The notes under the pieces are model-generated. The model was not told where the DNA came from and searched no databases. It worked only from the letters and a program-made list of their open reading frames with translations. A stretch of DNA of 64,000 nucleotides from the NCBI GenBank assembly GCA_963820825.1, contig CAWGBN010000006.1, forward strand, positions 640,001 through 704,000, in the 5' to 3' direction. Origin of the DNA: Vulcanimicrobiota bacterium. GTDB taxonomy: Bacteria; Vulcanimicrobiota; Vulcanimicrobiia; Vulcanimicrobiales; Vulcanimicrobiaceae. The first letter of the stretch is position 1. The number at the start of each line of letters is the position of its first letter. Below, one piece after another: positions 52 through 34,584 of this stretch. Both the position numbers and the translations under genes were made by a program.

Positions 52-1554
52 ATGGAGTCGCTCTTCGACGGGCCCGGTTCGCTACGCGAACCGTCCGAAC
101 GCCTGTACTTCTGGCTGACCGCGTTCTTCGCGCTCCCGGCGGCATTGGCGATCGGATACGTGCTGCACGAATCGATCGGCGCTTCACAAGTCGCGCTCTT
201 TATCGTCATCGCGATGGTCTACGTGACGCTGGCACGGGGCCGGCTCTTGGGCTCGAGCGTCCGCGTGCACCAGCGCCAGTATCCGCGCGTCTTCACCATC
301 GTGCGACAGACCTGCGCGGCGCTCGAGATCCCGATGCCGCTGATCTTCGTGCGCGAGGACAACTTCGTGCCGGTCGTGGCGCTGGGATTCGGCGAGCCAT
401 ACGCCCTCGTGCTATCGAGCCACTGGATCGAGCTCTTTGCCGACGACGAGCTCGCCTTCATGGTCGGGCGCGAACTCGGGCATATCGCCGCAGGGCACAC
501 GCGATTTCACTCGCTGCTCAGCGTGAACGGCAACGAGAACCCGATCGTCTCGATGATCTTCGGCGCGTGGCTGCGGCGCTGCGCGCTCACCTGCGACAAA
601 GTCGGACTTCTTTGCTGTGGCTCGCTCGATGCGGCGATCCGCGCGATGGGCATCGCCGCATTTCACGAGTTCGGGCGCAAAGTCGACTACGGTGCCTTCG
701 CCGAACAGCAGGTCGAGGTTGAGAACGATTCGATTTTGCGTTGGGGCGAATGGCTGAGCGCCGAGCCGTACGCGACGCAACGGATTGCGTCGTTGCAGCG
801 TTTCATGTCGACCCAGCAGTACGCGAACGCCGAGGCGTGGTTCTTGCGCGAGCGCAGCGAAGAACCGCCGGCGATCGCGGCACCGGGCGAGAAGCAGGTC
901 GTGTTGCGCGATTGCGCCGGGTGGTGGCGCCGCTGCGCTGCCTGGGGCATCGACGCGATCGTCGTCACCGCAATCATCACGTCGTTCGGCGGCCAAGTCA
1001 TCGGGCATAACGGCGAGCGCGAGAACGGCGTCTCGGTCACGCCGGGGCGCGTCCACGTCGCGGCACCGGGGTTAGGAAACATCTCAATCCAGGGTAAGAA
1101 GCAAGGGCCGCCGCCGAGCGCTCCGCCTTCGCCTCCACCGGCGCCGGCACCGGAGGTAACTTTTGGCCCACTCGCATTTACCAATCAGGGTCTCGCGCTG
1201 CGGGTCTACGACGAAGACGTTCCGCTCTCCGTCGATTCGATTGCCGCCGCGATCGGCGAGACCGTCAACAGACTCGGCTTCGCTTTTTGGTTTCCCGTCT
1301 ATCTCGCCGCGCTCGTCATCATTGCCGGGCAGACGTTCGGAATGATGATCGCCGGCCTGCGCGTCGTCACCACGGATTTCAGCAAGCCGAGCATCGCGCG
1401 CACGATCTTCCGCTACGTCATCGTCTTCGCGCTCTGGTGGTTGATCGTTCCGTTGAGCCTGATCTGGCGCCGCATTCTTCTGCACGACCGCTGGACCAAG
1501 ACGCGCCTGGTCAAGGTCGAGCGCGTCGTTGCCCGCATCACCGGAACCGCATAG
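52..1554 (+). CDS. M48 (HtpX/Ste24)-like peptidase domain fused to C-terminal RDD domain; zinc motif degenerate
   Basis: N-terminal TM helices, ELAFMVGRELGHIAAGH motif, WRRCAAWGIDAI and GQTFGMMIAGLRVV...LHDRWTKTRLV RDD motifs. Confidence 0.8.
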   Translation: MESLFDGPGSLREPSERLYFWLTAFFALPAALAIGYVLHESIGASQVALFIVIAMVYVTLARGRLLGSSVRVHQRQYPRVFTIVRQTCAALEIPMPLIFVREDNFVPVVALGFGEPYALVLSSHWIELFADDELAFMVGRELGHIAAGHTRFHSLLSVNGNENPIVSMIFGAWLRRCALTCDKVGLLCCGSLDAAIRAMGIAAFHEFGRKVDYGAFAEQQVEVENDSILRWGEWLSAEPYATQRIASLQRFMSTQQYANAEAWFLRERSEEPPAIAAPGEKQVVLRDCAGWWRRCAAWGIDAIVVTAIITSFGGQVIGHNGERENGVSVTPGRVHVAAPGLGNISIQGKKQGPPPSAPPSPPPAPAPEVTFGPLAFTNQGLALRVYDEDVPLSVDSIAAAIGETVNRLGFAFWFPVYLAALVIIAGQTFGMMIAGLRVVTTDFSKPSIARTIFRYVIVFALWWLIVPLSLIWRRILLHDRWTKTRLVKVERVVARITGTA

Positions 1555-1565
1555 GAGCTGCATAA

Positions 1566-2024
1566 ATGAAGGTAACCGTAACCGCGCTGCTTCTCGCTGC
1601 GTTCGTCGCCGCACCGGCGCGCGCGAGCGATCCGCTCGCCTCGCTGCACTTCCTCGTCGGAACGTGGAACTGCACGTACAACGCGGGCAAGGTGCACGCC
1701 AACTACAAAGCGATCTTCTCCTACGACATGAGCGGCAATTGGCTTAAGGAGAGCGATTCGTGGGCGGGAGGCGGCGGCGACCTGGGAATGTTTACGTACG
1801 AGAAGGGAGGCTGGACCGCCGTCGTGCTCGAGCGCGAGCGCACTACGGCCGTCTTTCACGCCTCGGGGAGCGATTCGAATCACGTCGTCTATCGCAGTAT
1901 CTACCCGCATGCCGGGATGACCGATATCTTCGATCGCGTCTCGGCGACGCGCTTTACCCTGCATTTCAAACAGACCGCGGGCGGAAAGACGACGTCGTCG
2001 AACGACACCTGCGTAAAGACCTAG
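1566..2024 (+). CDS. Secreted hypothetical protein
   Basis: Signal peptide MKVTVTALLLAAFVAAPARA; LHFLVGTWNC; operon spacing. Confidence 0.7.
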   Translation: MKVTVTALLLAAFVAAPARASDPLASLHFLVGTWNCTYNAGKVHANYKAIFSYDMSGNWLKESDSWAGGGGDLGMFTYEKGGWTAVVLERERTTAVFHASGSDSNHVVYRSIYPHAGMTDIFDRVSATRFTLHFKQTAGGKTTSSNDTCVKT

Positions 2025-2636
2025 GTGTGCGGTCGGTTTACGCTCACCCAGCCGGCGGCTCTCGCCGCAGCCTTTCCGCGATTTCGGTTTCCGGAGTTCA
2101 GCGAAACGCGGCTCCCGCGCTATAACATCGCGCCGGCACAAGCGGTCCTCGGCGTTCGCAACGACGGGCGCGATCTCATCGAAGAGCTGCGCTGGGGAAT
2201 CCACGGCCGAATCAACGTTCGGGCCGAGTCGATCGCGGCGCGGCACGCGCCGATCCGGCGGCGCTGCATCGAGTTCGCCGACGGCTTTTACGAGTGGTCG
2301 AATCGCCGGCCGTTCTATTACACGCTCAGATCGGGCCGGCCGTTTGCCTTTGCCGGCCTATGGGAACCGCTCGATGGGAGCGCCGCATGCGACGTCGCGA
2401 CCTGCGAGCCCAACGCAATCGTCGCACCGGTTCACGACCGTATGCCGGTAATTCTATCCGATTCCAATCTCGATTTGTGGCTCGATCCGCAGCCGCTACC
2501 GCCGGAAGTCGCGGCTTCGATCTTACGTCCGCTCGATGCGGCGTTGATGGACGTGCGCGAGGTCTCGATGCGGGTAAATAACGCGAACTACGATGCGGCC
2601 GACGCGCTCGCGCCGGCCGATCCGCGCTTGCTCTGA
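2025..2636 (+). CDS. SOS response-associated peptidase (SRAP/YedK/HMCES family)
   Basis: N-terminal MCGRF, PRYNIAP, GFYEW, FAGLW, VHDRMPVIL. Confidence 0.92.
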   Translation: MCGRFTLTQPAALAAAFPRFRFPEFSETRLPRYNIAPAQAVLGVRNDGRDLIEELRWGIHGRINVRAESIAARHAPIRRRCIEFADGFYEWSNRRPFYYTLRSGRPFAFAGLWEPLDGSAACDVATCEPNAIVAPVHDRMPVILSDSNLDLWLDPQPLPPEVAASILRPLDAALMDVREVSMRVNNANYDAADALAPADPRLL

Positions 2637-3289
2637 GCGATCAATACGACGCCCGTCGCCACGAGCCAAATCGCCGCCGGGATCGCTCCGAATAGTCCGG
2701 GGCCGGGTTGGCCGGGCGCCATGAAGAGATCGTTTGCAAAGATCGAGAGCGACGCAATCGCCGTTCCCAACGAGGCGAGGTAGCCGAGCCATGCGAGCCA
2801 GTTTGGCGCGCGGTTGTGCCGGCGCATGCTGTGAGCGGCCGCGAAGAGGAAGATCGAAACCGGTGCGTAGCCGAGGCCGCCTTGCGTAAAGATGAACGCG
2901 TCGTAGATGCTCATGAGCCCGCGCGCCTTGAAGATATCCGGCACCGCATAGAGTGCCGCCGTCAATAACGACGCCGCCCATAGCGACGTCGCAACCATGA
3001 CGACGCCGGCAACGAGCGCGAACGTCGGCAGCCCCTCCTGGCGTCCGGGCGCATTGCTCAGATAGGTACGCAACCCGACGAGGAACCAAAGGAAGAACGC
3101 CGCCGCGGGAAACGTGAGCCAGGCTCCCAAGAGCAGCCCGAACCGGTGCGAATCGATCGCGAGCGCGGCATCGATCGGGCGCGCTCCGACCGACGGCATC
3201 CCGTTGTCGAGAAATGTTGCGATCGCGAGGACCGCGACGTAACAGAGGGCCGACCAGCCGGCCGAGCGTTCTGCCGAGACGTTTTCCAT
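2588..3289 (-). CDS. Multi-pass membrane protein, unknown function
   Basis: About six hydrophobic segments; 49-bp convergent overlap with SRAP. Confidence 0.7.
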   Translation of the reverse strand: MENVSAERSAGWSALCYVAVLAIATFLDNGMPSVGARPIDAALAIDSHRFGLLLGAWLTFPAAAFFLWFLVGLRTYLSNAPGRQEGLPTFALVAGVVMVATSLWAASLLTAALYAVPDIFKARGLMSIYDAFIFTQGGLGYAPVSIFLFAAAHSMRRHNRAPNWLAWLGYLASLGTAIASLSIFANDLFMAPGQPGPGLFGAIPAAIWLVATGVVLIAQSKRGSAGASASAAS

Positions 3290-3334: not shown

Positions 3335-4873
3335 CTAGAGTCCGTAGTATTTGAAGGCGGGCCACATCACGGCCAGCGGAACGCGCGGGCGCGTGCAGAG
3401 ATAGATCGGTAGCGGTCCCTCGAGCATCCATCGGTAATCGTTGCGGTAGACCGCGATCTGGCGGACGCTGCCGAACCATTGGAGCAAGAGGTGATAATCG
3501 GTTGCGCCGACGGCTAAGACCGAGGCGCCGCTGTAGCCTCGCGTGCCCCACAAATAGTACGAGTTATTCGGGCTAATCACGGTCGGTAAGCCGTAGCGCG
3601 GTCCGTAGTAATCGAGCGCTCCGGCGTAGGCGTAGCGATCGGCGAAGACCGCGGTGACTCTGCGTTGCGCCGGCGGCAGCGACCAATACGCGCCCGCTAC
3701 CATCGCGCTCATCGTCTTCCAACCGAGTTGATCGGCGAACATCGGATTGATGAGATGGTAGGCGCCGTCGGGTGGTGCGGGCCGGCTCAGGCCGATAGCG
3801 CGTTCGTAGGCCATGTATGCCGGAAGCGACAGCACCGGCAGCGAGAGCGGAAACATCGGCAGCCCGGCGATGGCGATTGCCGCCGTCAGCGCGATCTTCG
3901 GTGCGAGCCGCTTGGCCGACAAGGCGCGCTCGATTGCGACGGCGCCGGCCGCGAAGAGCGCGGGATAGCAGCCTTGGATGTAATACCCGCGACCGATCGT
4001 AAGAACGAGCACGCCGAGCAGTATGAGATAGGCGACGGTAATGAAGCGATACTCGCGCTCACGCCAGAACCACACCAAGCCCCAGATCCAGACCGGCGAG
4101 AAGACCGGATTCTGATAGGCGAACTGCAGGCCGAACATGTAGAGCGCGTTCTTCCAACGATTCGACGATTCGTCGGCCATGCCGTTGGCGAGCGCGTGCC
4201 GGTTGAGTTGATCGTTATGCAGCACTTCGAGCATCGGCAGACCGTGGGCGATCTGCCAGATGACGTTGGGAAGGACGAGCAAAACGGCGAGCGCAACGCC
4301 GTACGCGAGCCAAGAGGATCGCAAAAGCCTCGCGTGACCGGCTATCAGCAAGCCGATCGCCAGCGCGAGCGCACAGCCCGCGATCGAGTACTTTGCATAG
4401 AACGCGAGCGTTACGACCAAAGCGATCGAGATGTAGAGGCGCCGGTCTTGCGTCTTGACCAGGCGGATGGTCAAGTAGATCAATGCGGTCCAGGAGGCCG
4501 GAGAGAGGAACTCCGTCGAGAGGCCGTACGCGATTCCGATCAAACCCGGGTCGAGCACGATCAGCAAGCCGGTCAAGAACTGCGCGAAGGCGCGGCCGCC
4601 GAGCTCGCGTGCGATCGCGCAGCCGAAGAGCACGGTGACGCCGGCGAGCACCGCGGGGACGAAGCGCAGCCCCCAGACCGGATAGCCGAGTGGGCCAGTC
4701 AGCCAAGTGACGATCGGTGCGAGCGGCGGCTGATCGACGTATCCCCAAGCGAGATGCTTCGCGCAATCGATGAAGTAGAGCTCGTCGCGGTAGTATCCGA
4801 ACCGGTGAGCAAAGGCGAGGTGAAGAGCTACCGTCGCAAGCGCGAAGAGGTACGCGCTTGGATGGAGCTTCAT
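3335..4873 (-). CDS. GT39/PMT-like membrane glycosyltransferase
   Basis: GYYRDELYF, LAWGYVDQPPL, many TM helices. Confidence 0.88.
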   Translation of the reverse strand: MKLHPSAYLFALATVALHLAFAHRFGYYRDELYFIDCAKHLAWGYVDQPPLAPIVTWLTGPLGYPVWGLRFVPAVLAGVTVLFGCAIARELGGRAFAQFLTGLLIVLDPGLIGIAYGLSTEFLSPASWTALIYLTIRLVKTQDRRLYISIALVVTLAFYAKYSIAGCALALAIGLLIAGHARLLRSSWLAYGVALAVLLVLPNVIWQIAHGLPMLEVLHNDQLNRHALANGMADESSNRWKNALYMFGLQFAYQNPVFSPVWIWGLVWFWREREYRFITVAYLILLGVLVLTIGRGYYIQGCYPALFAAGAVAIERALSAKRLAPKIALTAAIAIAGLPMFPLSLPVLSLPAYMAYERAIGLSRPAPPDGAYHLINPMFADQLGWKTMSAMVAGAYWSLPPAQRRVTAVFADRYAYAGALDYYGPRYGLPTVISPNNSYYLWGTRGYSGASVLAVGATDYHLLLQWFGSVRQIAVYRNDYRWMLEGPLPIYLCTRPRVPLAVMWPAFKYYGL

Positions 4874-5985
4874 ACTGCGCTAGACTGCGACCCCGCGAGC
4901 AAGAGCTGGCTGACGCAGAGACCGACGATGCCTGCCACGGCAATCGATCCAAAGACGAAGCTGGCGTCCCACCACGTTCCTCCTAACAACGGAACCGCGA
5001 AGGCAAAATAGGCCGCGAAGTAGACCGCCGGCACGGCGAAGCCCAGAAGCCGGTAGGCGTTGGCGTTGCGCGCCGACGGATGCAGCTTTGCGACGATGAC
5101 GTCGCCGGCGAATCCAGCCGCGACCGAGGCGAGAACCACGAGCAGCAGCTCCACGAGATCGGTTGAGAGTTCGCCGCCGATCCAGAGCTTGACGGCGACG
5201 CTGATGACGATGAGTGCGCCGAAATGAAGGCGTTTGCGAAGGCAGAGATAGAGCGTGGCGGCGGCGAGCAGAAGGCTCTGCCAGACGACGATCGAGATCT
5301 CGAGGGCTTGCCGATAAAAGAGGAAGACGGAGAGCACGAACTGCTCGCGCGAGTAGGCCGTCTGGGAGAGCGGATGATCGCGCATCAGCGCTTCGGGATA
5401 GAAACCGTATTGGGTGACGAATTGAATGATCTCGAATGCGAGGCCGAGCGAGATCAGCATCGGAAGCTGTTCGACCAAACGCGAGGCGTTGGGCCGCTGC
5501 AGCGCGCTGCGTACCGGTCCGGTAATGAGGAAGAATAGGCCGGTCAACAAGAAGAGGTGCGGCGGACTCATCAGCAGATCGAGCTGATGCTCGAAACCGA
5601 AGACCGCGTGCCAGACCATATCGAGCGCGCCGCCGAGCAGCAATCCGGCGACGCCGAAGACGCTCTGTAGGTAACCGTCGGGAATCGCCTTCCGGAACGA
5701 GGAGGCACCGCTCTTATAGTTGCGCCAAATGGTGACTCCGAGGACCGCGGCCGCGAAGACGGCGCCGCTGTACATCGTCGCGTGCCACGGATTGAGAAAG
5801 GACTCGACCGCCAAGAAGAGATGCTGGTGGGCGTCGATAAATAGCCCCGTCATGATCCAGAGGCCCGATAGGGTTATTAACCAATCGAGGCGGCTCGGCG
5901 CGCCGGAGCGCCCCAATGCCAACTCGAGCCGGGGGAGCGGAGCCTGCGCTTCCGTCCGGGGCGACAGCAAATCCACGAGGTTCAT
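4870..5985 (-). CDS. Multi-pass membrane protein with two D-x3-H...PxH motifs
   Basis: Start reassigned to MNLVDLL (CAT 5983-5985); 4-bp overlap with the GT39 gene. Confidence 0.75.
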   Translation of the reverse strand: MNLVDLLSPRTEAQAPLPRLELALGRSGAPSRLDWLITLSGLWIMTGLFIDAHQHLFLAVESFLNPWHATMYSGAVFAAAVLGVTIWRNYKSGASSFRKAIPDGYLQSVFGVAGLLLGGALDMVWHAVFGFEHQLDLLMSPPHLFLLTGLFFLITGPVRSALQRPNASRLVEQLPMLISLGLAFEIIQFVTQYGFYPEALMRDHPLSQTAYSREQFVLSVFLFYRQALEISIVVWQSLLLAAATLYLCLRKRLHFGALIVISVAVKLWIGGELSTDLVELLLVVLASVAAGFAGDVIVAKLHPSARNANAYRLLGFAVPAVYFAAYFAFAVPLLGGTWWDASFVFGSIAVAGIVGLCVSQLLLAGSQSSAV

Positions 5986-6457
5986 GTATCGGCGCTCATC
6001 CTGCGACTCGCCTAGAAACCCTCTTCGCAGCTTCCTTTGGGCTCTGCCGGCGGGGGCGTGTGCCCTGTTGCTTGCTAGTTGTTCGCCCAAACCGGTAGCG
6101 GTTCCGCTGAATCTCACCGTATCGGAGAAGCAACCGCAAGTATGGCCATCGCCGCCGGTAGCGGCCCCAAACGCGCCGCCGCATATCGTGCGCATCTGGT
6201 TCTCGACGTTGAAGATCGAACCGGGCTCGTGGTTCGATGGAAAGATCCTCGTGAGCACCAACGTCGCGTCGGTTGAAGTGCGTACCGCCGCGTTCTCGAT
6301 CAACAGCGAGCACATCGCTCCGGGCGTCTACCGCTTTCACACGCACGTGCTCGAGCTGCCGCCGCTCTCGCGTCGCCATTGGTACGAGCTGTACATCATT
6401 GCGCGCAACACTCCCGGCGCGCAAGAGATCGAAGAGGCGCCGCTTCGAGTCGAATGA
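5984..6457 (+). CDS. Putative lipoprotein (start uncertain)
   Basis: Lipobox-like LLLASC; ATGA overlap with downstream deacetylase. Confidence 0.6.
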   Translation: MYRRSSCDSPRNPLRSFLWALPAGACALLLASCSPKPVAVPLNLTVSEKQPQVWPSPPVAAPNAPPHIVRIWFSTLKIEPGSWFDGKILVSTNVASVEVRTAAFSINSEHIAPGVYRFHTHVLELPPLSRRHWYELYIIARNTPGAQEIEEAPLRVE

Positions 6458-7868: not shown

Positions 7869-9094
7869 TGAATCCGGCACCGAGGATCGAACGCCGCCTG
7901 CTCGTCTCGTATTTGCTGGCATTCGCGGCGCTCTTCGTGGCCGCCGCGGTTGCCGCGCACTTTGCTTTCGTCGCGATCATCGAGCATCAGCGGGCCGCGC
8001 GTCTGCAAGACGTCGCACGGGCGGGGATCCGCAGCGTGATCTTCGTTGGGAACGGTCTCGCGATCGACCAACGCGAGATCTCGAATGCGCAGCTGCTGAC
8101 GCCCGGCCAGGGCTTACAGTGGTTCGACCGGCACGGCCGCCTTCTGGCAGCGGAGGGCTTCACGCCGGCGCCAGGCGGCCGGCGCCGATTTCACAGCGTT
8201 ACGTTGCCGATCTTTAACCCGATCACGCAAGAGTACGTCGGCAGCGTAACGGCAGGGGAACTGAACGCGCAGGAGCGCGCGGCGGTCTGGTATCTCGACT
8301 TGGGGCTGCTCCTCAGCGCGATTCTCGCGTCGCTCGCGAGCGCGGCCGGGGCGCGCGCACTCGCGCGCCGCGCGGTCCAACCGGTCGAACGAAGCCTGCG
8401 GATTCTGCGCGAGTTCACCGACAATGCCGCGCACGAGCTGCGCGGGCCGCTGACCGTTATCGCGACGAGTGCGGATGCCGCGCTGCGCGACAAGCGAGAT
8501 CCCGCGCACGACCGGCAGCGCTTCGAGAGCATCGCCGACGGTGCGAGGCAGATGTCGCGATTGACCAGCGATCTGCTGATGCTCGCCGGTGCCGACCGAT
8601 CGCTCGAACGCGAGCTCTTCCGGGTCGACCTCGAAGCGATCCTCAAAAAGCTCGCGGAAGATTTTCGCGGCGCGTTCGAAGAGGCCGGCGTTGCGTTGGA
8701 GGTCAACCTGGCCGCTCCCGGAGCGCTCTACGGCAATCCGCACCAAATCGAGCGCGTGATTGCCAATCTGCTCGAGAACGCGCTGCGCTACACTCCGCGC
8801 GGAGGCAGCGTATCGATCGAGTTGCGCCGGCACGGGGCCGATCTGCAGGTGGTGGTGCGCGATTCCGGCGTCGGAATCGCCCCGGAGCATCTGAAACGGA
8901 TCTTCGAACGTTTCTGGCGGGCCGATCCCGTGCGTTCGCCGGAAGGCTCGGGGCTCGGGCTCCCCATCGCCCGTGCGCTGGCGCGCCGCCACGGCGGCGA
9001 GGTCACGGTCACGAGCCGGATGGGGCGCGGCAGCACCTTCGTCGCGTCGTTTCCGCTGCGTCCTCCGGCGACACGAATTCGCAGCCTGACTTGA
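7865..9094 (+). CDS. Sensor histidine kinase
   Basis: AAHELRGPL H-box, NLLENALRY, DSGVGI, GSGLGL. Confidence 0.93.
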   Translation: MMNPAPRIERRLLVSYLLAFAALFVAAAVAAHFAFVAIIEHQRAARLQDVARAGIRSVIFVGNGLAIDQREISNAQLLTPGQGLQWFDRHGRLLAAEGFTPAPGGRRRFHSVTLPIFNPITQEYVGSVTAGELNAQERAAVWYLDLGLLLSAILASLASAAGARALARRAVQPVERSLRILREFTDNAAHELRGPLTVIATSADAALRDKRDPAHDRQRFESIADGARQMSRLTSDLLMLAGADRSLERELFRVDLEAILKKLAEDFRGAFEEAGVALEVNLAAPGALYGNPHQIERVIANLLENALRYTPRGGSVSIELRRHGADLQVVVRDSGVGIAPEHLKRIFERFWRADPVRSPEGSGLGLPIARALARRHGGEVTVTSRMGRGSTFVASFPLRPPATRIRSLT

Positions 9095-9111
9095 CGATTT
9101 CTTGACGATTT
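9091..9111 (+). promoter_or_regulatory. Direct repeat TTGACGATTT-C-TTGACGATTT, candidate OmpR-type binding site
   Basis: Exact 10-mer repeat with 11-bp period, between the kinase stop and the DUF1059 start. Confidence 0.45.
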
Positions 9112-9131
9112 TCGATTACTATTGGGGCCTC

Positions 9132-9377
9132 GTGTCCTCGACATTTGGTTCGTACAAGTATTTTGATTGCCGCGAATTCGATCCTCATGGCGGATGCTCG
9201 TTTCGCACCGCCGGGACGGAGGCTGAGGTCCTCGAGGCGGCAGTCCGGCACGCCGTATCGGCGCACGGCTATCGGGGTTGGCAGGAGCTTCGCCTCGTCC
9301 TACGCGCTGCACTCCGAGACGATTCCGGTACACCGTCCTACGCCTCCGTGGCGAGCCGGTACGAGAGCCTGGTCTAA
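9132..9377 (+). CDS. DUF1059-like small metal-binding protein
   Basis: FDCRE...GCSF...EVLEAAVRHAVSAHG; GTG start assumed. Confidence 0.7.
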   Translation: MSSTFGSYKYFDCREFDPHGGCSFRTAGTEAEVLEAAVRHAVSAHGYRGWQELRLVLRAALRDDSGTPSYASVASRYESLV

Positions 9378-9409
9378 CTAAGCCCAGCCCTCTCGCAGTC
9401 TTCCAACGC

Positions 9410-9450
9410 GCGGGTGTGCCGTCCGGATACGGCGCACCCGCTTCGTTTCT
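9410..9450 (+). terminator. Intrinsic terminator-like hairpin
   Basis: 13-bp stem GCGGGTGTGCCGT/ACGGCGCACCCGC (one G-U pair), then TTCGTTTCT. Confidence 0.55.
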
Positions 9451-9676
9451 AAGCGAATGCGGCCGAGGTTGCCACGGCGCTCGAACAGTTTCCCCCAGAC
9501 ACTGCCACCTCGCCACGCTCGGCATCCCCGACCGCATATCCAACCTAGCGCCAACGCATGAAGAAATCATGAAAGGGCGGCCCCCCAGGGCGGCGGTCGC
9601 TTGCAGTTAAATTTGTGAGGTCCGGCGAACCGTGTAAGCTTCCTACGATCCAAATTTTCCAAGGGCAAGGGAAGTC

Positions 9677-10147
9677 ATGAAATCTTCGTTTTCCGGTTTC
9701 GGTGCGGCCGCGTTCGTAGCTGCGCTGACGCTCGGTATTTTGAGTCTTTTCAGCCCATCGGCCGCGCGCGCCGGTGGAACGGTGCTGATCCAGCAGGCCG
9801 ACGGCCGGCGGAACGTCTACGACGACGTCGCGATCAAGGTCATTCACAACGTGCTTTACGTAACGTCGGCGGACGGTCGCGGAACCATCGTGATCAATCG
9901 AGCGGCGTGCTCGTATCAGGGCGAGCTGATGGTCTGCTTACCGACGAGTGCGGCGCTCGTGCAGTCGGGTAAGACGAGCGCGCTCGATTTCAAGTCCGGC
10001 ACGCTCTATGTGAACAGCACCGACGATCCGCTGCCGCTCACGATGTCGACGGCGAAGGTTCAGCCGCACGGCATTATCCTCTCCTTTACGACCAAGCGCG
10101 GCACGTACGTCAACTTGAGCGGCCGTATCGACAAGGTGGTGAAATAA
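9677..10147 (+). CDS. Secreted beta-rich protein with Cys pair (module copy 1, gene A)
   Basis: Signal peptide; RAACSYQ...VCLPT; paralog of 34108-34584. Confidence 0.8.
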   Translation: MKSSFSGFGAAAFVAALTLGILSLFSPSAARAGGTVLIQQADGRRNVYDDVAIKVIHNVLYVTSADGRGTIVINRAACSYQGELMVCLPTSAALVQSGKTSALDFKSGTLYVNSTDDPLPLTMSTAKVQPHGIILSFTTKRGTYVNLSGRIDKVVK

Positions 10148-10148
10148 G

Positions 10149-11018
10149 ATGAAACCTCTCTGTTTGATCATGGCGGTTCTTTTTGCGCTCTCGCCGGCGA
10201 TCGCGTCGGCGGGGAGGGGCGGTGGCGGCGGCGGACGCGGCGGCGGCGGCGGCGCTCGCGCGGGTGGCGGTGCACGACCTTCGGGCGGCGGCGCTCGGCC
10301 ATCGGGCGGCTCGCGTCCGTCGGGCGGCTCGCGACCATCAAGTGGCGCCCGCCCATCGGGCGGCGGCGGTTTCAACCTGGGCGGAGACACGGGCCGGCCC
10401 TCGGGCGGGGGCAATCGCGGCAACGTAAGTTCCGGCGCGGGTAATCGCGGTAACGGCAACGCCGGCAACGGTAATCGCGGTAACGGCAACGCCGGCAACG
10501 GCAACCGCGGTAACGGCAACGCCGGCAACGGCAATCGCGGTAACGGCAACAAGAACAACGGCAACAAGAACAACGGCAACAAGAACAACGGCAATTTCAA
10601 CAATAACAACGTCAATCGCAACACCAACATCAATAACAATCGGACCGTCATCAACAACCCGGTCAACTACGGGGGCGGAGCCTATGGTTGGAACCACGGT
10701 GCGGCCTGGTATCCCGCGAGCGGGTACTGGGGCGGCGGATTCTGGGGCGCGATGGCAGTCGGCGTTACCTCAGCTGCCGTCTACGGGTCGATCGTCGGTG
10801 CAAACAACACCACCTACAACTCCTACCAAGTACAGCCGAGCAGTCCCGGTTCCACCTTCCTGTCTAACTATCAACTCGTGCAGGTGCAGTGCGGACCGCC
10901 GAACCTGGTCGTCGTCTATGGTCCCGAGAACAGCGTGATCTGTGCGAATCCGAACAATCTCGTCTCGGCGGGCAACTACACGTTGAATACCGAGACGCTC
11001 GGGCTGACGCCGCAGTAA
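10149..11018 (+). CDS. Secreted Gly/Asn-rich repeat protein with conserved C-terminal domain (module copy 1, gene B)
   Basis: Signal peptide, RPSGG and GNRGNGNAGN repeats; C-terminal domain shared with 33146-34111. Confidence 0.8.
   Translation: MKPLCLIMAVLFALSPAIASAGRGGGGGGRGGGGGARAGGGARPSGGGARPSGGSRPSGGSRPSSGARPSGGGGFNLGGDTGRPSGGGNRGNVSSGAGNRGNGNAGNGNRGNGNAGNGNRGNGNAGNGNRGNGNKNNGNKNNGNKNNGNFNNNNVNRNTNINNNRTVINNPVNYGGGAYGWNHGAAWYPASGYWGGGFWGAMAVGVTSAAVYGSIVGANNTTYNSYQVQPSSPGSTFLSNYQLVQVQCGPPNLVVVYGPENSVICANPNNLVSAGNYTLNTETLGLTPQ
10440..10590 (+). repeat. Coding tandem repeats: about 3.5 x 30 bp followed by 3 x 15 bp
   Basis: GGTAATCGCGGTAACGGCAACGCCGGCAAC units, then GGCAACAAGAACAAC units. 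Confidence 0.85.
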
Positions 11019-11087
11019 CGGTCCGAACTCTTCAGCGGCGCTTCGCTCTCGGTCGTACACCGCAGGGCGCGGCGCCGCTCCTCTTCG

Positions 11088-12653
11088 GTGATGGCGCGTA
11101 GTCCGGCGAGTTCGTTCGCGCAGCGCGTGCAGCGCAGTGAGTTTTTGGGCGGCCTCGTCTCTTCGTTGACGCTGGCGGGCTGTGCGCGCTCCGCCGTTCC
11201 AACCATCGTGCCCGCGGCGACCGTTGCGGGCAATCGCGCCGGCAAACCTCGGGTTGTTATCGTCGGCGCCGGAGCGGCCGGCGTCACCTGCGCCTACCGA
11301 CTGTATCAGGCGGGGATTGCCGCCCGCATCTTCGAGGCGAACACCCGGGCCGGCGGCCGTACCTGGACGCTGCGGGGATTCTTTCGCGACGGGCAGTACG
11401 GCGAGCACGGCGGTCAGCTCATCGCTACGTCGCAGCATCGCGTGCGGCGGCTCGCCGCCGAGCTCGAGCTGCGCCTCATCGACCTCAACGCGCTCTATCC
11501 ACGCAACGCGGTCGACACGTACTTCATCCACGGTCAGCGCTACACGCACGACGAAGCGGCGCACGACTACGACCGCTACGTTTACGAGCCGCTCAACCGC
11601 GCCGCAAAGGCGGCCGGCTATCCGACGACGTTTTACCGTCACACTCGGGCCGGAGTCGCCCTCGACCGGATGAACGTCGACGAGTGGATAGAACAAAACG
11701 TGGAAGGCGGCGCCGGCTCGAAGATCGGCAAGCTCTTGCTCTTGGCCTGCGTGAGCGAGTATGGCGGCGAATCGCACGCTCAAAGCGCGCTCAATCTCAT
11801 CTATTTGTTCTCCGGGATGCGCCATGGCCGGCTCGACCTCTCGGGTGCCGGCGAGGATGACAAGTATACGATCGATGGCGGCAACGACCGGCTCGTTGCG
11901 CGAATGGTTGCGAAACTTCCGCGCGGGTCGGTGACGCTCGGTGCCGCACTCGAAGCGCTCGCGCGTACCTCCGACGGCTCGTATCTCTGCACGTTCGCCT
12001 CCGGCACGACGACCAAGACCGTTCGCGCCGACGTCGTGGTCCTTGCGATTCCGTTCACCGTCTTGCGGCAGGTAGACTCACGCGCGGCCGGATTCTCGGA
12101 TCGTAAGCGCCGCGCGATCGCCGCGCTCGATCTCGGTTCGAATGCAAAGGTTCACCTGCAATTCACCTCACCGTATTGGTTCAAAGAGCATTTCAGCGCA
12201 ACGGCATACGCCGACGACCTCTACCAAGACTGTTGGGACGCGAGCATCGGGCAGCGCGGGCGGGCGGGAATGCTCGTCTGTTTTCCGGGCGGTGCGGAGG
12301 GCATGCGATATACCGGCGACGCGCACGGCGCCGCGCCCAGCCACACTGCGCAGCGCTATCTGCGATCCCTCGAGCCGTCGCTGCCGGGGGCGTTACGAGC
12401 CTTCAACGGTATCGCCTACCAAGATTTTTGGATCGGCGATCCGTTTACGCGCGGCGCGTACGCTTACTACAAAACCGGTCAATACTCGACGCTCTGCGGC
12501 GTGGAGCGCCTCGCCGAAGGAGGCGTCCACTTTTGCGGCGAGCAGACCTCGCTCGAGTGGCAGGGTTACATCAACGGCGCCGTCGAGAGCGGCGAGCGCG
12601 CCGCGCACGAGATCTTGCGCGACATCGGCCTGCCGGCGCGCCTCGAGATTTAG
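11088..12653 (+). CDS. Flavin monoamine oxidase family protein, probably an exported lipoprotein
   Basis: VVIVGAGAAG, RAGGR, HFCGEQTS, GYINGAVESG; LAGC lipobox. Confidence 0.88.
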   Translation: MMARSPASSFAQRVQRSEFLGGLVSSLTLAGCARSAVPTIVPAATVAGNRAGKPRVVIVGAGAAGVTCAYRLYQAGIAARIFEANTRAGGRTWTLRGFFRDGQYGEHGGQLIATSQHRVRRLAAELELRLIDLNALYPRNAVDTYFIHGQRYTHDEAAHDYDRYVYEPLNRAAKAAGYPTTFYRHTRAGVALDRMNVDEWIEQNVEGGAGSKIGKLLLLACVSEYGGESHAQSALNLIYLFSGMRHGRLDLSGAGEDDKYTIDGGNDRLVARMVAKLPRGSVTLGAALEALARTSDGSYLCTFASGTTTKTVRADVVVLAIPFTVLRQVDSRAAGFSDRKRRAIAALDLGSNAKVHLQFTSPYWFKEHFSATAYADDLYQDCWDASIGQRGRAGMLVCFPGGAEGMRYTGDAHGAAPSHTAQRYLRSLEPSLPGALRAFNGIAYQDFWIGDPFTRGAYAYYKTGQYSTLCGVERLAEGGVHFCGEQTSLEWQGYINGAVESGERAAHEILRDIGLPARLEI

Positions 12654-33145: not shown

Positions 33146-34111
33146 TTACGTCGGCGGTGCTGCTGACGATGGCGCGGGTGGACCGTTGACCGGTAAGAGA
33201 TCCATAGTCACGGTGTCGAGCCGATACTCGCCCGCGCCGACATAGCTGTTGGGTTGCGCACATACGACGCTATTTTGCGGACCGTAGACGACCACGAGGC
33301 CGGAAGGCCCACACTGCGTCTGCGTCAACTGGTACGTTGAGAAAAACGTAGCGCCGGGCGTGCCCGCTTGTACTTCGTAGGAGTTATACGTGACGTCGGT
33401 GTCTTCGTCAACGATCGCTCCGTAAACCGCGGCAGAGGTCACGCCGATTGCCATGGCTCCCCAGAATCCGCCGCCCCAATAATACGGCGCTGGCGCCCAC
33501 GCCATTCCGCCGTTCCAGCCGTAGTAACCGCCACCGCCGTAAACGGGATTGTTGACGATCGTATTTCCGTTGCCGCTGCCGATGTTGTTGTTGCCGCCGC
33601 CGGGGCGATTTCCGGTGCCGGGACTGCCGGGACGACCCGCTCCGCCGGGTCCGCCGACTCCGCCGGGTCCGCCAACGCTGCCAGGTCCGCCTGGGCCTCC
33701 CGGACCACCGGGGCGACCAGCTCCGCCGACGCCGCCGGGGCCGCCAGGACCACCGGGCCGACCGGGACCGCCAACGCCACCGACACCGCCAACGCCACCG
33801 ACGCCGCCGGGCCGCTGCGCGACACCCGGGCGCTGCATGCTGCCGCCGCCCATTCCGCCGCGCGAGAAGTCTGAGCCGCCGAGGTTGTATCCTCCGCCGC
33901 GACCGCCACTCGGGCGCGACGACATACCGCCGCCGCCGCGAGACGCTCCGCCGCCGCCGCCGCGGGACATACCGCCGCCGCCGCCGCGCGAACCGCCGCC
34001 GCCGCGCGCACCGCCGCCGCCGCGTCCGCCGCCCCCACCGCGACCGGCATCGGCCGCAGTGCAAAGCTGCATCACGAAAACTACTGAGAGAATCAGCGCG
34101 AGATACTTCAT
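33146..34111 (-). CDS. Secreted Gly/Pro-rich repeat protein with conserved C-terminal domain (module copy 2, gene B)
   Basis: Signal peptide; GGVGGV and GGPGRPGGPG repeats; C-terminal domain matches 10149-11018. Confidence 0.8.
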   Translation of the reverse strand: MKYLALILSVVFVMQLCTAADAGRGGGGGRGGGGARGGGGSRGGGGGMSRGGGGGASRGGGGMSSRPSGGRGGGYNLGGSDFSRGGMGGGSMQRPGVAQRPGGVGGVGGVGGVGGPGRPGGPGGPGGVGGAGRPGGPGGPGGPGSVGGPGGVGGPGGAGRPGSPGTGNRPGGGNNNIGSGNGNTIVNNPVYGGGGYYGWNGGMAWAPAPYYWGGGFWGAMAIGVTSAAVYGAIVDEDTDVTYNSYEVQAGTPGATFFSTYQLTQTQCGPSGLVVVYGPQNSVVCAQPNSYVGAGEYRLDTVTMDLLPVNGPPAPSSAAPPT

Positions 34112-34584
34112 TCTTGCTTTATCAGTTGATCGATGCGCCCGCGGACGTTGATGAACGTCCCGTTTCTCGTCGAAATCGTGAGCATTATGCTCTTCGCAGG
34201 CAGCTTAGCCGAGGAATGCGACAACGGTTGTTCGGCATCGGTGTAATTGAGATAAATCGTCCCGGTTTTGAGGTTGAGCGCATTGCTTTCACCCTCTTGC
34301 ACCAGCGCGGCATTCGTGGGTAAGCAAACGATGATCTTCTCCTGATACGAGCACGCAGCTCGCGTGATGACGATCGTCCCGTCACCGTCGTCGGTCGTCA
34401 AGAAGAGCGAGCCGGAGAATACCTTGATTTCAACGTCGCGGTACGTGTTCACCGATCCGTCTTTATGCTGAATGTTGATGGTGCCGGTGGAGCTCGCGAC
34501 CGCCGGTATCAGAGCGCAACAGACCGCGATGCCCGCAGCGGCGATTCGTGATGGGATGTTCAGGACTTTGCTCAAATCCAGCAT
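34108..34584 (-). CDS. Secreted beta-rich protein with Cys pair (module copy 2, gene A)
   Basis: GTIVITRAACSYQ...VCLPT...GTIYLN...GRID; paralog of 9677-10147. Confidence 0.8.
   Translation of the reverse strand: MLDLSKVLNIPSRIAAAGIAVCCALIPAVASSTGTINIQHKDGSVNTYRDVEIKVFSGSLFLTTDDGDGTIVITRAACSYQEKIIVCLPTNAALVQEGESNALNLKTGTIYLNYTDAEQPLSHSSAKLPAKSIMLTISTRNGTFINVRGRIDQLIKQE

Follow-up and report, generated by a model that had tools for sequence, protein, structure and literature searches.

The 64,000-nucleotide (nt) stretch of DNA analysed here, called the window below, covers positions 640,001 to 704,000 of contig CAWGBN010000006.1 in the Vulcanimicrobiota bacterium assembly GCA_963820825.1. It carries two copies of a pair of adjacent genes, A and B, and this pair is a real, strongly conserved and lineage-restricted module without known relatives. 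A first-pass annotation of the window had described a duplicated two-gene module with the second copy inverted at 33146-34584. This was confirmed, with A2 and B2 both on the minus strand of that interval (Table 1), and all of the motifs that it quoted, RAACSYQ, VCLPT, GRGGGG, RPSGG, NNPV...YWGGGFWGAMA.GVTSAAVYG and QCGP...C, are present in the translations. A1 and A2 are 48% identical over 143 residues (E = 6e-51). B1 and B2 are 66% identical, with the similarity confined to the C-terminal 124 residues (E = 1e-48), and their cores do not align. Chance is excluded as an explanation of the pair because it is conserved across about 160 genomes and because the C-terminal part of B is 65-94% identical among relatives. 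The idea that the open reading frames (ORFs) are artefacts of GC-rich repeats was ruled out by conservation and linkage.

The two genes abut or overlap in each pair of this genome. The stop codon of A1 is separated from the ATG of B1 by 1 nt, and the sequence AAGGTGG is found 8-14 nt upstream of the B1 start. A2 and B2 overlap by 4 nt, and so do the genes of a third pair on contig C9 (locus L004, A3 at 1489..1938 and B3 at 1935..2837), in which the B3 core is rich in Ser, Gly, Thr, Asn and Tyr. The whole assembly (3.0 Mb in 9 contigs, 85% complete) holds four A matches and three B genes. The hairpin upstream of A1, called from a pattern scan alone that found 5 sites where 2.3 were expected, suggests that A1-B1 is a transcription unit of its own. 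An Rfam scan of 8800-11300 gave no match at E values up to 0.1, a sigma-70 promoter scan of 9000-11300 gave 0 sites, and neither a sequencing run nor an RNA run was listed as carrying the locus. A decayed fourth copy was seen in locus L003 (G000 contig C9:180372-183737) at about 1397-1925 on the minus strand. Here A lacks the signal peptide, shares 69% identity with A2 and abuts the final 35 residues of a B2-like gene; most of this B is lost through an internal deletion.

Table 1. Coordinates of the A-B pairs and their parts in the window.
Feature	Position	Strand	Description
Terminator-like hairpin	9410..9441	+	13-bp stem with 10 G-C pairs and a T-rich tail; between the upstream histidine-kinase gene and gene A
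Gene A, copy 1 (A1)	9677..10147	+	156 residues; signal peptide at about residues 1-32, then a predicted 10-strand all-beta barrel
Gene B, copy 1 (B1)	10149..11018	+	289 residues
B1 signal peptide	10149..10211	+	residues 1-21, ending in AIASA before GRGG; layout shared by relatives; cleavage predicted from the A-x-A pattern
B1 cationic region, predicted disordered	10212..10643	+	residues 22-165; Gly/Arg and RPSGG stretch, GGGFNLGGD motif, Gly/Asn core with GNRGNGNAGN x3 and GNKNN x3
B1 aromatic/Gly motif and Gly/Ala-rich hydrophobic stretch	10644..10778	+	residues 166-210; NPV..YGWNHG.AW.PA..YWGGGFWG; many invariant columns
B1 C-terminal alpha/beta domain (predicted)	10779..11018	+	residues 211-289; two invariant Cys, 16 residues apart; predicted local distance difference test (pLDDT) score 75-90
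Gene B, copy 2 (B2)	33146..34111	-	321 residues; B1-like layout, Gly/Pro-rich core (GGV/GGP triplets; 53% Gly, 10% Pro)
Gene A, copy 2 (A2)	34108..34584	-	158 residues

A and the conserved end of B were searched in 401 genomes of the phylum, the genome of the window included, and the resulting tables were compared by eye. A was found in 163 and the conserved end of B in 164 of the 401 genomes, and the numbers were 114 and 115 among the 247 genomes of high quality. With the genome of the window excluded, its own genus had A in 75 and B in 76 of 79 genomes, and family f1 had them in 152 and 153 of 296. Both were found in 10 of 30 genomes of family f3 and neither in the remaining 19 families. The first-pass annotation had proposed co-occurrence across genomes as a check, and both genes were indeed present in 162 of the 165 genomes that have either one. 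The single-gene genomes, one with A only (G331) and two with B only (G220 and G377), are all fragmented into 220-360 contigs. The copy number per genome ranges from 1 to 7. All named relatives belong to the Eremiobacterota (Vulcanimicrobiota), such as Candidatus Cybelea, Baltobacteraceae, Vulcanimicrobiaceae and others, and every one is annotated as "hypothetical protein". When a profile of the conserved end of B was run against 1.84 billion representative proteins, only 177 clusters were matched at E values up to 0.001, with the match at the C terminus in nearly all of them. A few contigs bearing the module are filed under metagenome-assembled genomes labelled Acidiferrales, Babeliales, Binatus and Acidoferrum (loci L020, L024, L070 and L071). 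Given the otherwise strict restriction to Eremiobacterota, these look like binning or labelling errors. The first-pass description of the system as undescribed also stands: no Pfam or NCBIfam family was matched by A (best row NusG_II, E = 0.0099, below its cut-off) or by B1, B2 and their relatives, and limited literature searches found no description of either family.

Next, the linkage of the two genes was examined in 64 fetched loci. The conserved end of B was found downstream of A on the same strand in 52 of them, two of which hold two tandem pairs. The other 12 (L012, L015, L019, L020, L026, L039, L049, L051, L059, L065, L066 and L072) end 1-515 nt past A, with the contig end inside or just before the B repeat region. 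With these 12 set aside for want of downstream sequence, B comes after A in 52 of the 52 loci that allow the test. The position of the breaks suggests that B repeats disrupt metagenome assemblies. B is probably under-counted in such assemblies and in gene catalogues, with contigs often breaking inside it. Defects within the pair were also seen, namely an in-frame stop within B in L029 (7061-7435) and in G073 (G073:C1:138449-138823, one TAG), and split A and B frames in L069 (6001-7173); these are pseudogenes or sequencing errors in repeat-rich DNA. Clustering of the ORFs over the 64 loci showed no third family regularly adjacent to the pair and no channel gene.

The claim of the first-pass annotation that A is a dedicated partner of B was supported only by this linkage, and some B-like proteins do without A. 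Of 24 distinct B genes in four genomes of genus g20, 16 have A upstream. The other 8 are weaker matches with no A within the 1.5 kilobases (kb) fetched on either side. In a quick tree, the A-less B genes form a clade of their own with a support of 96 in the Shimodaira-Hasegawa-like approximate likelihood ratio test (SH-aLRT). This subfamily (L087, L088, L090 and L092-L096, from genomes G115, G136, G169 and G202) has cores rich in Gln/Arg/Tyr or in Pro/Ser/Ala, for example with SYQQPAR repeats. Since this diverged clade has B without A, A goes with one large B subfamily and not with every B-like protein. One of the A-less B genes adjoins a gene for a small, beta-rich exported protein with two Cys residues (L090 562-1002, minus strand), and a sequence similar to it is fused to the C terminus of the B-like protein P0271 at residues ~150-261. 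This two-Cys protein may be an alternative partner of the A-less B.

In the conserved part of B, a nearly invariant W-G-W-N-x-G is followed by Y-W-G-G-G-F-W-G and the Gly/Ala-rich hydrophobic stretch. Lys and Arg are absent from the last 124 residues, which have just 2 acidic residues. The end domain, of ~78 residues, is common to all family members including distant ones, which often do not have the aromatic motif and the hydrophobic stretch. In these distant members the end domain is kept and the low-complexity regions differ (Tyr/Gly/Pro, Ala/Pro, Arg/Asn/Asp or SYQQPAR repeats). A fold search with the end domain gave a best E value of 1.7 in Foldseek and no row with Z >= 2 in a wide VIA search, both of which may have suffered from the flexible half of the model. 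Pfam includes glycine-zipper membrane and lipoprotein families; none matched over the Gly/Ala-rich stretch at E values up to 10. Pfam rows for IL8 (E = 0.11-0.17), XkdW and TrbL_3 obtained with distant B members were weak and were judged to be noise.

Two known protein types resemble B in layout. A protein-atlas search with B returned unnamed clusters only, plus a weak lead to DUF6515 (PF20125), an uncharacterised bacterial family for which we know of no function. Its members have a signal peptide, a low-complexity stretch and a conserved C-terminal part. One relative of B, P0176, carries a DUF6515 label from one source, and a protein-language-model search listed a cluster with 14% DUF6515 members at a score of 0.86. 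However, no match to the DUF6515 profile (24.9-bit cut-off) was found at E values up to 10 in 26 family members and the whole genome. BclA, a Bacillus exosporium protein, has a repeat region and a globular C-terminal domain. BclA-type collagen-like or repeat surface proteins share with B a length-variable repeat region followed by a conserved C-terminal globular domain, and the GGV/GGP triplets of B2 are Gly-X-Y-like. They differ from B in that no homology was detected, the host of B is diderm, the repeat types of B vary by paralogue and B has an obligate partner gene.

In contrast to the C-terminal part, the core of B turns over between close orthologues. The Gly/Arg stretch in the family contains RPSGG-type units and a GGGFN..D motif. 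In B1, the (GNRGNGNAGN)x3 and GNKNN repeats noticed in the first-pass annotation proved to be real tandem DNA repeats: a 30-bp unit in 3.6 copies with 96% matches (10443-10550) and a 15-bp unit in 3.5 copies with 100% matches (10542-10594). These tandem repeats are young. The Gly/Pro-rich B2 core has repeat periods of 9, 18 and 45, and the repeat units across the family measure 15-60 bp. Orthologues whose A proteins are 66-82% identical carry differing units (GNRGNGNAGN, GNKGNGNRGN, GNANK and GNKNN) in differing numbers.

The composition of the core is specific to each paralogue. Among 77 apparently full-length relatives (14 of 120 listed proteins had no parsing motif and were excluded), it contains 24.1% Asn, 20.5% Gly, 8.8% Arg, 1.2% Asp and 0.2% Glu. 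Five composition classes were distinguished, Gly/Asn, Gly/Pro, Gly/Ser/Thr, Pro-rich and Gln-rich. They track the clades of the C-terminal tree, with 18 label changes against a mean of 34.4 after shuffling and a value as low in 0 of 200 shuffles, on a quick tree of 124 columns and in a test of a kind that kinship inflates. In the same tree, the Gly/Pro clade that includes B2 has a support of 95 and the Gly/Ser/Thr clade that includes B3 a support of 93. Arg plus Lys exceeds Asp plus Glu in each class, with medians of 8-13% versus 0.6-4.7% (Gly/Ser/Thr class apart). In B1, residues 22-165 contain 19 Lys and Arg versus 1 acidic residue, with an isoelectric point (pI) of 12.0 and a grand average of hydropathy (GRAVY) of -1.52.

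Protein A was modelled from 56 sequences with a mean pLDDT of 84.3, exceeding 90 for residues 31-156. The model consists of an N-terminal signal helix and ten strands, and in it A appears to be a small up-and-down beta-barrel. The strand register brings the invariant residues C78 and C87 face to face across the hairpin 69-81/84-96. The protein has a pI of 9.2 and ends in KVVK, a non-aromatic C terminus. In a wide VIA fold search, the Cap15 barrel 7n34 came first (Z = 8.7), followed by BF2706, NspA, OmpW, YceI and LpqH, with LolA at Z = 5.5. The alignments covered 91-106 residues at a root-mean-square deviation of 2.6-3.7, and many unrelated 8-strand barrels were tied at Z values of 7-8, which according to the search tool's own statement are typical of models without a true relative. 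Foldseek placed LolA first (E = 2e-3) with a template modelling (TM) score of ~0.3. A thus aligns with small 8-strand barrels and differs from them in its cross-strand Cys pair. Outer-membrane barrels typically end in an aromatic residue, carry a hydrophobic belt that faces the lipid and have no disulfide. The KVVK end and this Cys pair would thus speak for solubility and against a place in the membrane, although barrels of the OmpW/NspA type rank among the best rows. From the Cys pair, the pI and the non-aromatic C terminus, A is likely to be a soluble periplasmic protein. No longer fused form of A was found among 2426 candidates, which is weak evidence, and a protein-atlas search with A gave no usable match. 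The NusG_II row mentioned above and a DUF5766 row for A are weak Pfam matches and were judged to be noise.

Both A and B begin with signal peptides. The signal peptides, together with the invariant Cys pairs in the A hairpin and in the B end domain, point to an oxidising compartment for both proteins, and the genome encodes Omp85 and VKOR homologues. The only member of the phylum in culture possesses an outer membrane (PMC9758169), and on that account a signal peptide alone would lead to the periplasm only. Export through Sec would therefore end there, and going further would need a route that was not found among the genes examined here. The extracellular location proposed in the first-pass annotation was accordingly not upheld, since signal peptides lead only to the periplasm in a diderm host and no third gene for a channel travels with the pair.

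Taken together, we tentatively propose that A-B is a self-contained, lineage-restricted operon that encodes a polymer protein of the envelope or matrix together with an accessory barrel. The evidence for this reading lies in the A-B linkage, the abutting or overlapping genes, the stand-alone nature of the module, the signal peptides and invariant Cys pairs, the compositional core, the constant C-terminal part and the separate clade of A-less B genes. Both proteins would be exported through the Sec pathway. B would be a modular polymer protein, with its conserved C-terminal third as a docking or self-assembly end and its N-terminal two thirds as a hydrophilic, disordered chain that carries positive charge in most types of paralogue. 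Selection would act on the composition and length of this chain and not on its sequence, and change would come through slippage of short DNA repeats. As a physical material, the chain would form a spacer, a gel or an adhesive layer within the envelope or at the cell surface and could bind anionic polymers such as lipopolysaccharide or exopolysaccharide. A would be a soluble, disulfide-stapled periplasmic barrel made with B, which would hold or deliver the sticky conserved segment of B. The hydrophobic stretch of A-linked B genes has a median length of 31 residues and a median best 15-residue hydropathy of 1.75 (68 genes parsed), versus 16-21 residues and -0.04 to 0.96 in the A-less genes (5 parsed, 5 rows unparsed). 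As far as the sequences go, this difference fits a handling of that segment by A. A complex prediction with A (31-156) and B (166-289) from our own alignments scored 0.01 against a mark of 0.32 and counts neither way.

Several observations weigh against this proposal. The tree behind the clade argument is the quick one with 124 columns. The Gly/Ser/Thr class is nearly uncharged (3.4% Lys plus Arg versus 1.9% Asp plus Glu), so that a positive charge is not universal. The fold matches of A are generic 8-strand barrels at Z values typical of no true relative. The model of B, made for a partial-length protein, is poor at residues ~160-210 (pLDDT < 50). Finally, one A-linked clade (L071, L083 and L089) has a non-hydrophobic, Gly/Tyr-rich stretch, and because of this clade the role of A cannot simply be the shielding of a hydrophobic segment. 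A bolder version of the same idea, which we consider rather unlikely, is that the paralogues, each with a different low-complexity chain on a common assembly domain and with a barrel chaperone of their own, make up a previously unseen envelope material that forms a layer of gel, condensate or fibres, either periplasmic or at the surface. If this were true, the chains would include prion-like Asn/Gly sequences, collagen- or polyglycine-like GGX sequences, and Ser/Thr/Tyr/Gly sequences like those of eukaryotic condensate-forming domains.

Four other explanations remain, ranked in the order of a fibre, a periplasmic protectant, a membrane-anchored form of B and an antimicrobial pair. The first-pass annotation had inferred a fibre system analogous to curli and Fap without recognisable homology to them. 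In such a functional amyloid, B would polymerise outside the cell through its Asn/Gly core or its aromatic/Gly segment, and A would be a nucleator or an anti-aggregation chaperone, as CsgB and CsgC are nucleator and chaperone for curli. As in those systems, an exported, Asn/Gly-rich protein of low charge lies beside a small exported, beta-rich protein with a Cys pair, here a dedicated partner, and there is more than one paralogue per genome. The nearly uncharged C-terminal part (0 Lys or Arg and 2 acidic residues in 124) and the invariant aromatic/Gly motif with its Gly/Ala stretch would make a plausible aggregation core. The genome also has one CsgG-family gene, and in at least 25 genomes of the genus such a gene and the copy-1 pair are 5-10 kb apart on opposite strands, as judged from positions. 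The absence of recognisable homology was borne out for curli: no curlin repeat was found when B1, B2 and 22 relatives were run with hmmscan against Pfam-A at E values up to 1 or 10, and no other family was matched. For Fap, whose operon would be marked by FapC-type repeats and a FapF channel, there was no Pfam or NCBIfam match (the presence of Fap models in these libraries was not confirmed) and no third conserved gene. The analogy itself fared less well. The core of B is not a conserved imperfect repeat as in curli but turns over between close orthologues and contains ~11% Arg plus Lys; the end domain of B is predicted to be globular; and no outer-membrane channel is linked to the pair.

The CsgG-family genes bear on the same point, because they do not track A/B across genera. 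They occur in 145 of the 401 genomes (with the unpublished genome G275 counted), in 1 of 12 genomes of genus g18 and 2 of 18 of genus g20, all of which have A/B, and in 11 of 19 genomes of family f6, none of which has A/B. Three genomes of the own genus have CsgG and no A, and two of the three have no B either. No CsgG was found in the window, and the sole CsgG-family gene of this genome lies on another contig, C2, among neighbours unrelated to the pair. Of the 64 loci, 13 have a CsgG-like gene at their edge. Because the intervening genes are unrelated, its proximity is read as inherited gene order. About 1 kb from the CsgG-family gene on contig C2 of G000, a gene for a 264-residue lipoprotein-like protein with a very Gly-rich body was noticed (L099 7600-8394, minus strand); its sequence is unrelated to B. 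On balance, we regard a curli-like fibre as unlikely.

About as doubtful is a stress protectant of the periplasm, in which the B chain, like hydrophilins or late embryogenesis abundant (LEA)-type proteins, would guard the envelope against drying, freezing or acid in oligotrophic soils and peat, with paralogues for differing conditions. Hydrophilins are linked with a Gly-rich, very hydrophilic composition. The core of B has a GRAVY of -1.52 and 20-50% Gly, the 1-7 copies per genome differ in composition, and the genes that precede the pair encode a two-component system at copy 1 and an MmyB-type regulator at copy 2. However, this explanation leaves the conserved C-terminal module and the obligate partner A without a role. 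It is still less probable that B is a single-pass membrane protein, with the Gly/Ala stretch as a transmembrane helix that separates a disordered chain outside from a cytoplasmic 2-Cys domain. The stretch is ~20 residues long with a 15-residue hydropathy of ~1.75, and some relatives have a 4-residue AAVG insert, equal to one helical turn. Yet no helix was modelled in it (at low confidence), it has no flanking positive charges, and the invariant Cys pair would sit in the reducing cytoplasm. In diverged members that keep the end domain, it is replaced by Gly/Tyr/Pro-rich sequence or missing, and it is shortened in the A-less clade. We think that it is not a membrane anchor. Very improbable, finally, is a secreted antimicrobial B with A as its periplasmic immunity protein, by analogy with Gly-rich bacteriocins, in which a hydrophobic segment of Gly and Ala is combined with a C-terminal end closed by a disulfide. 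The corresponding elements of B are its Gly-rich N-terminal region, the Gly/Ala stretch and the Cys pair near the C terminus, and the module is tightly linked and multi-copy. Polymorphic toxins, however, vary in the opposite way: in B, conservation is highest (65-94% identity) in what would be the active end, A is conserved too, and no export or lysis gene is linked.

The genes around the pair vary. The commonest neighbour, found in 31 of the 64 loci, encodes a 370-residue membrane protein, 1.8-5.8 kb upstream on the opposite strand, and the three paralogous pairs of this genome have differing neighbours. Upstream of copy 1 and divergent from it are the genes of a PMT_2-family glycosyltransferase and of a large membrane protein (window 3335-6315, minus strand), an arrangement also seen in relatives (L033 319-5538). 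In many genomes of the genus, a CsgG-family gene follows a few kb beyond these two. The presence of a protein-glycosylating enzyme of the PMT_2 type beside a Ser/Thr/Asn-rich exported protein raises the question of B glycosylation.

The Eremiobacterota, a soil phylum with hardly any cultured members, abound in peat and in acidic soils poor in nutrients. With the module present in 75-76 of the 79 other genomes of the genus and in up to 7 copies, A-B is likely to be a major envelope component that current annotation has missed. The module would also be a clean example from nature of a disordered region in bacteria whose composition is under selection while its repeats turn over fast, and it could serve as a tractable model for the roles of disordered low-complexity proteins outside the bacterial cytoplasm.

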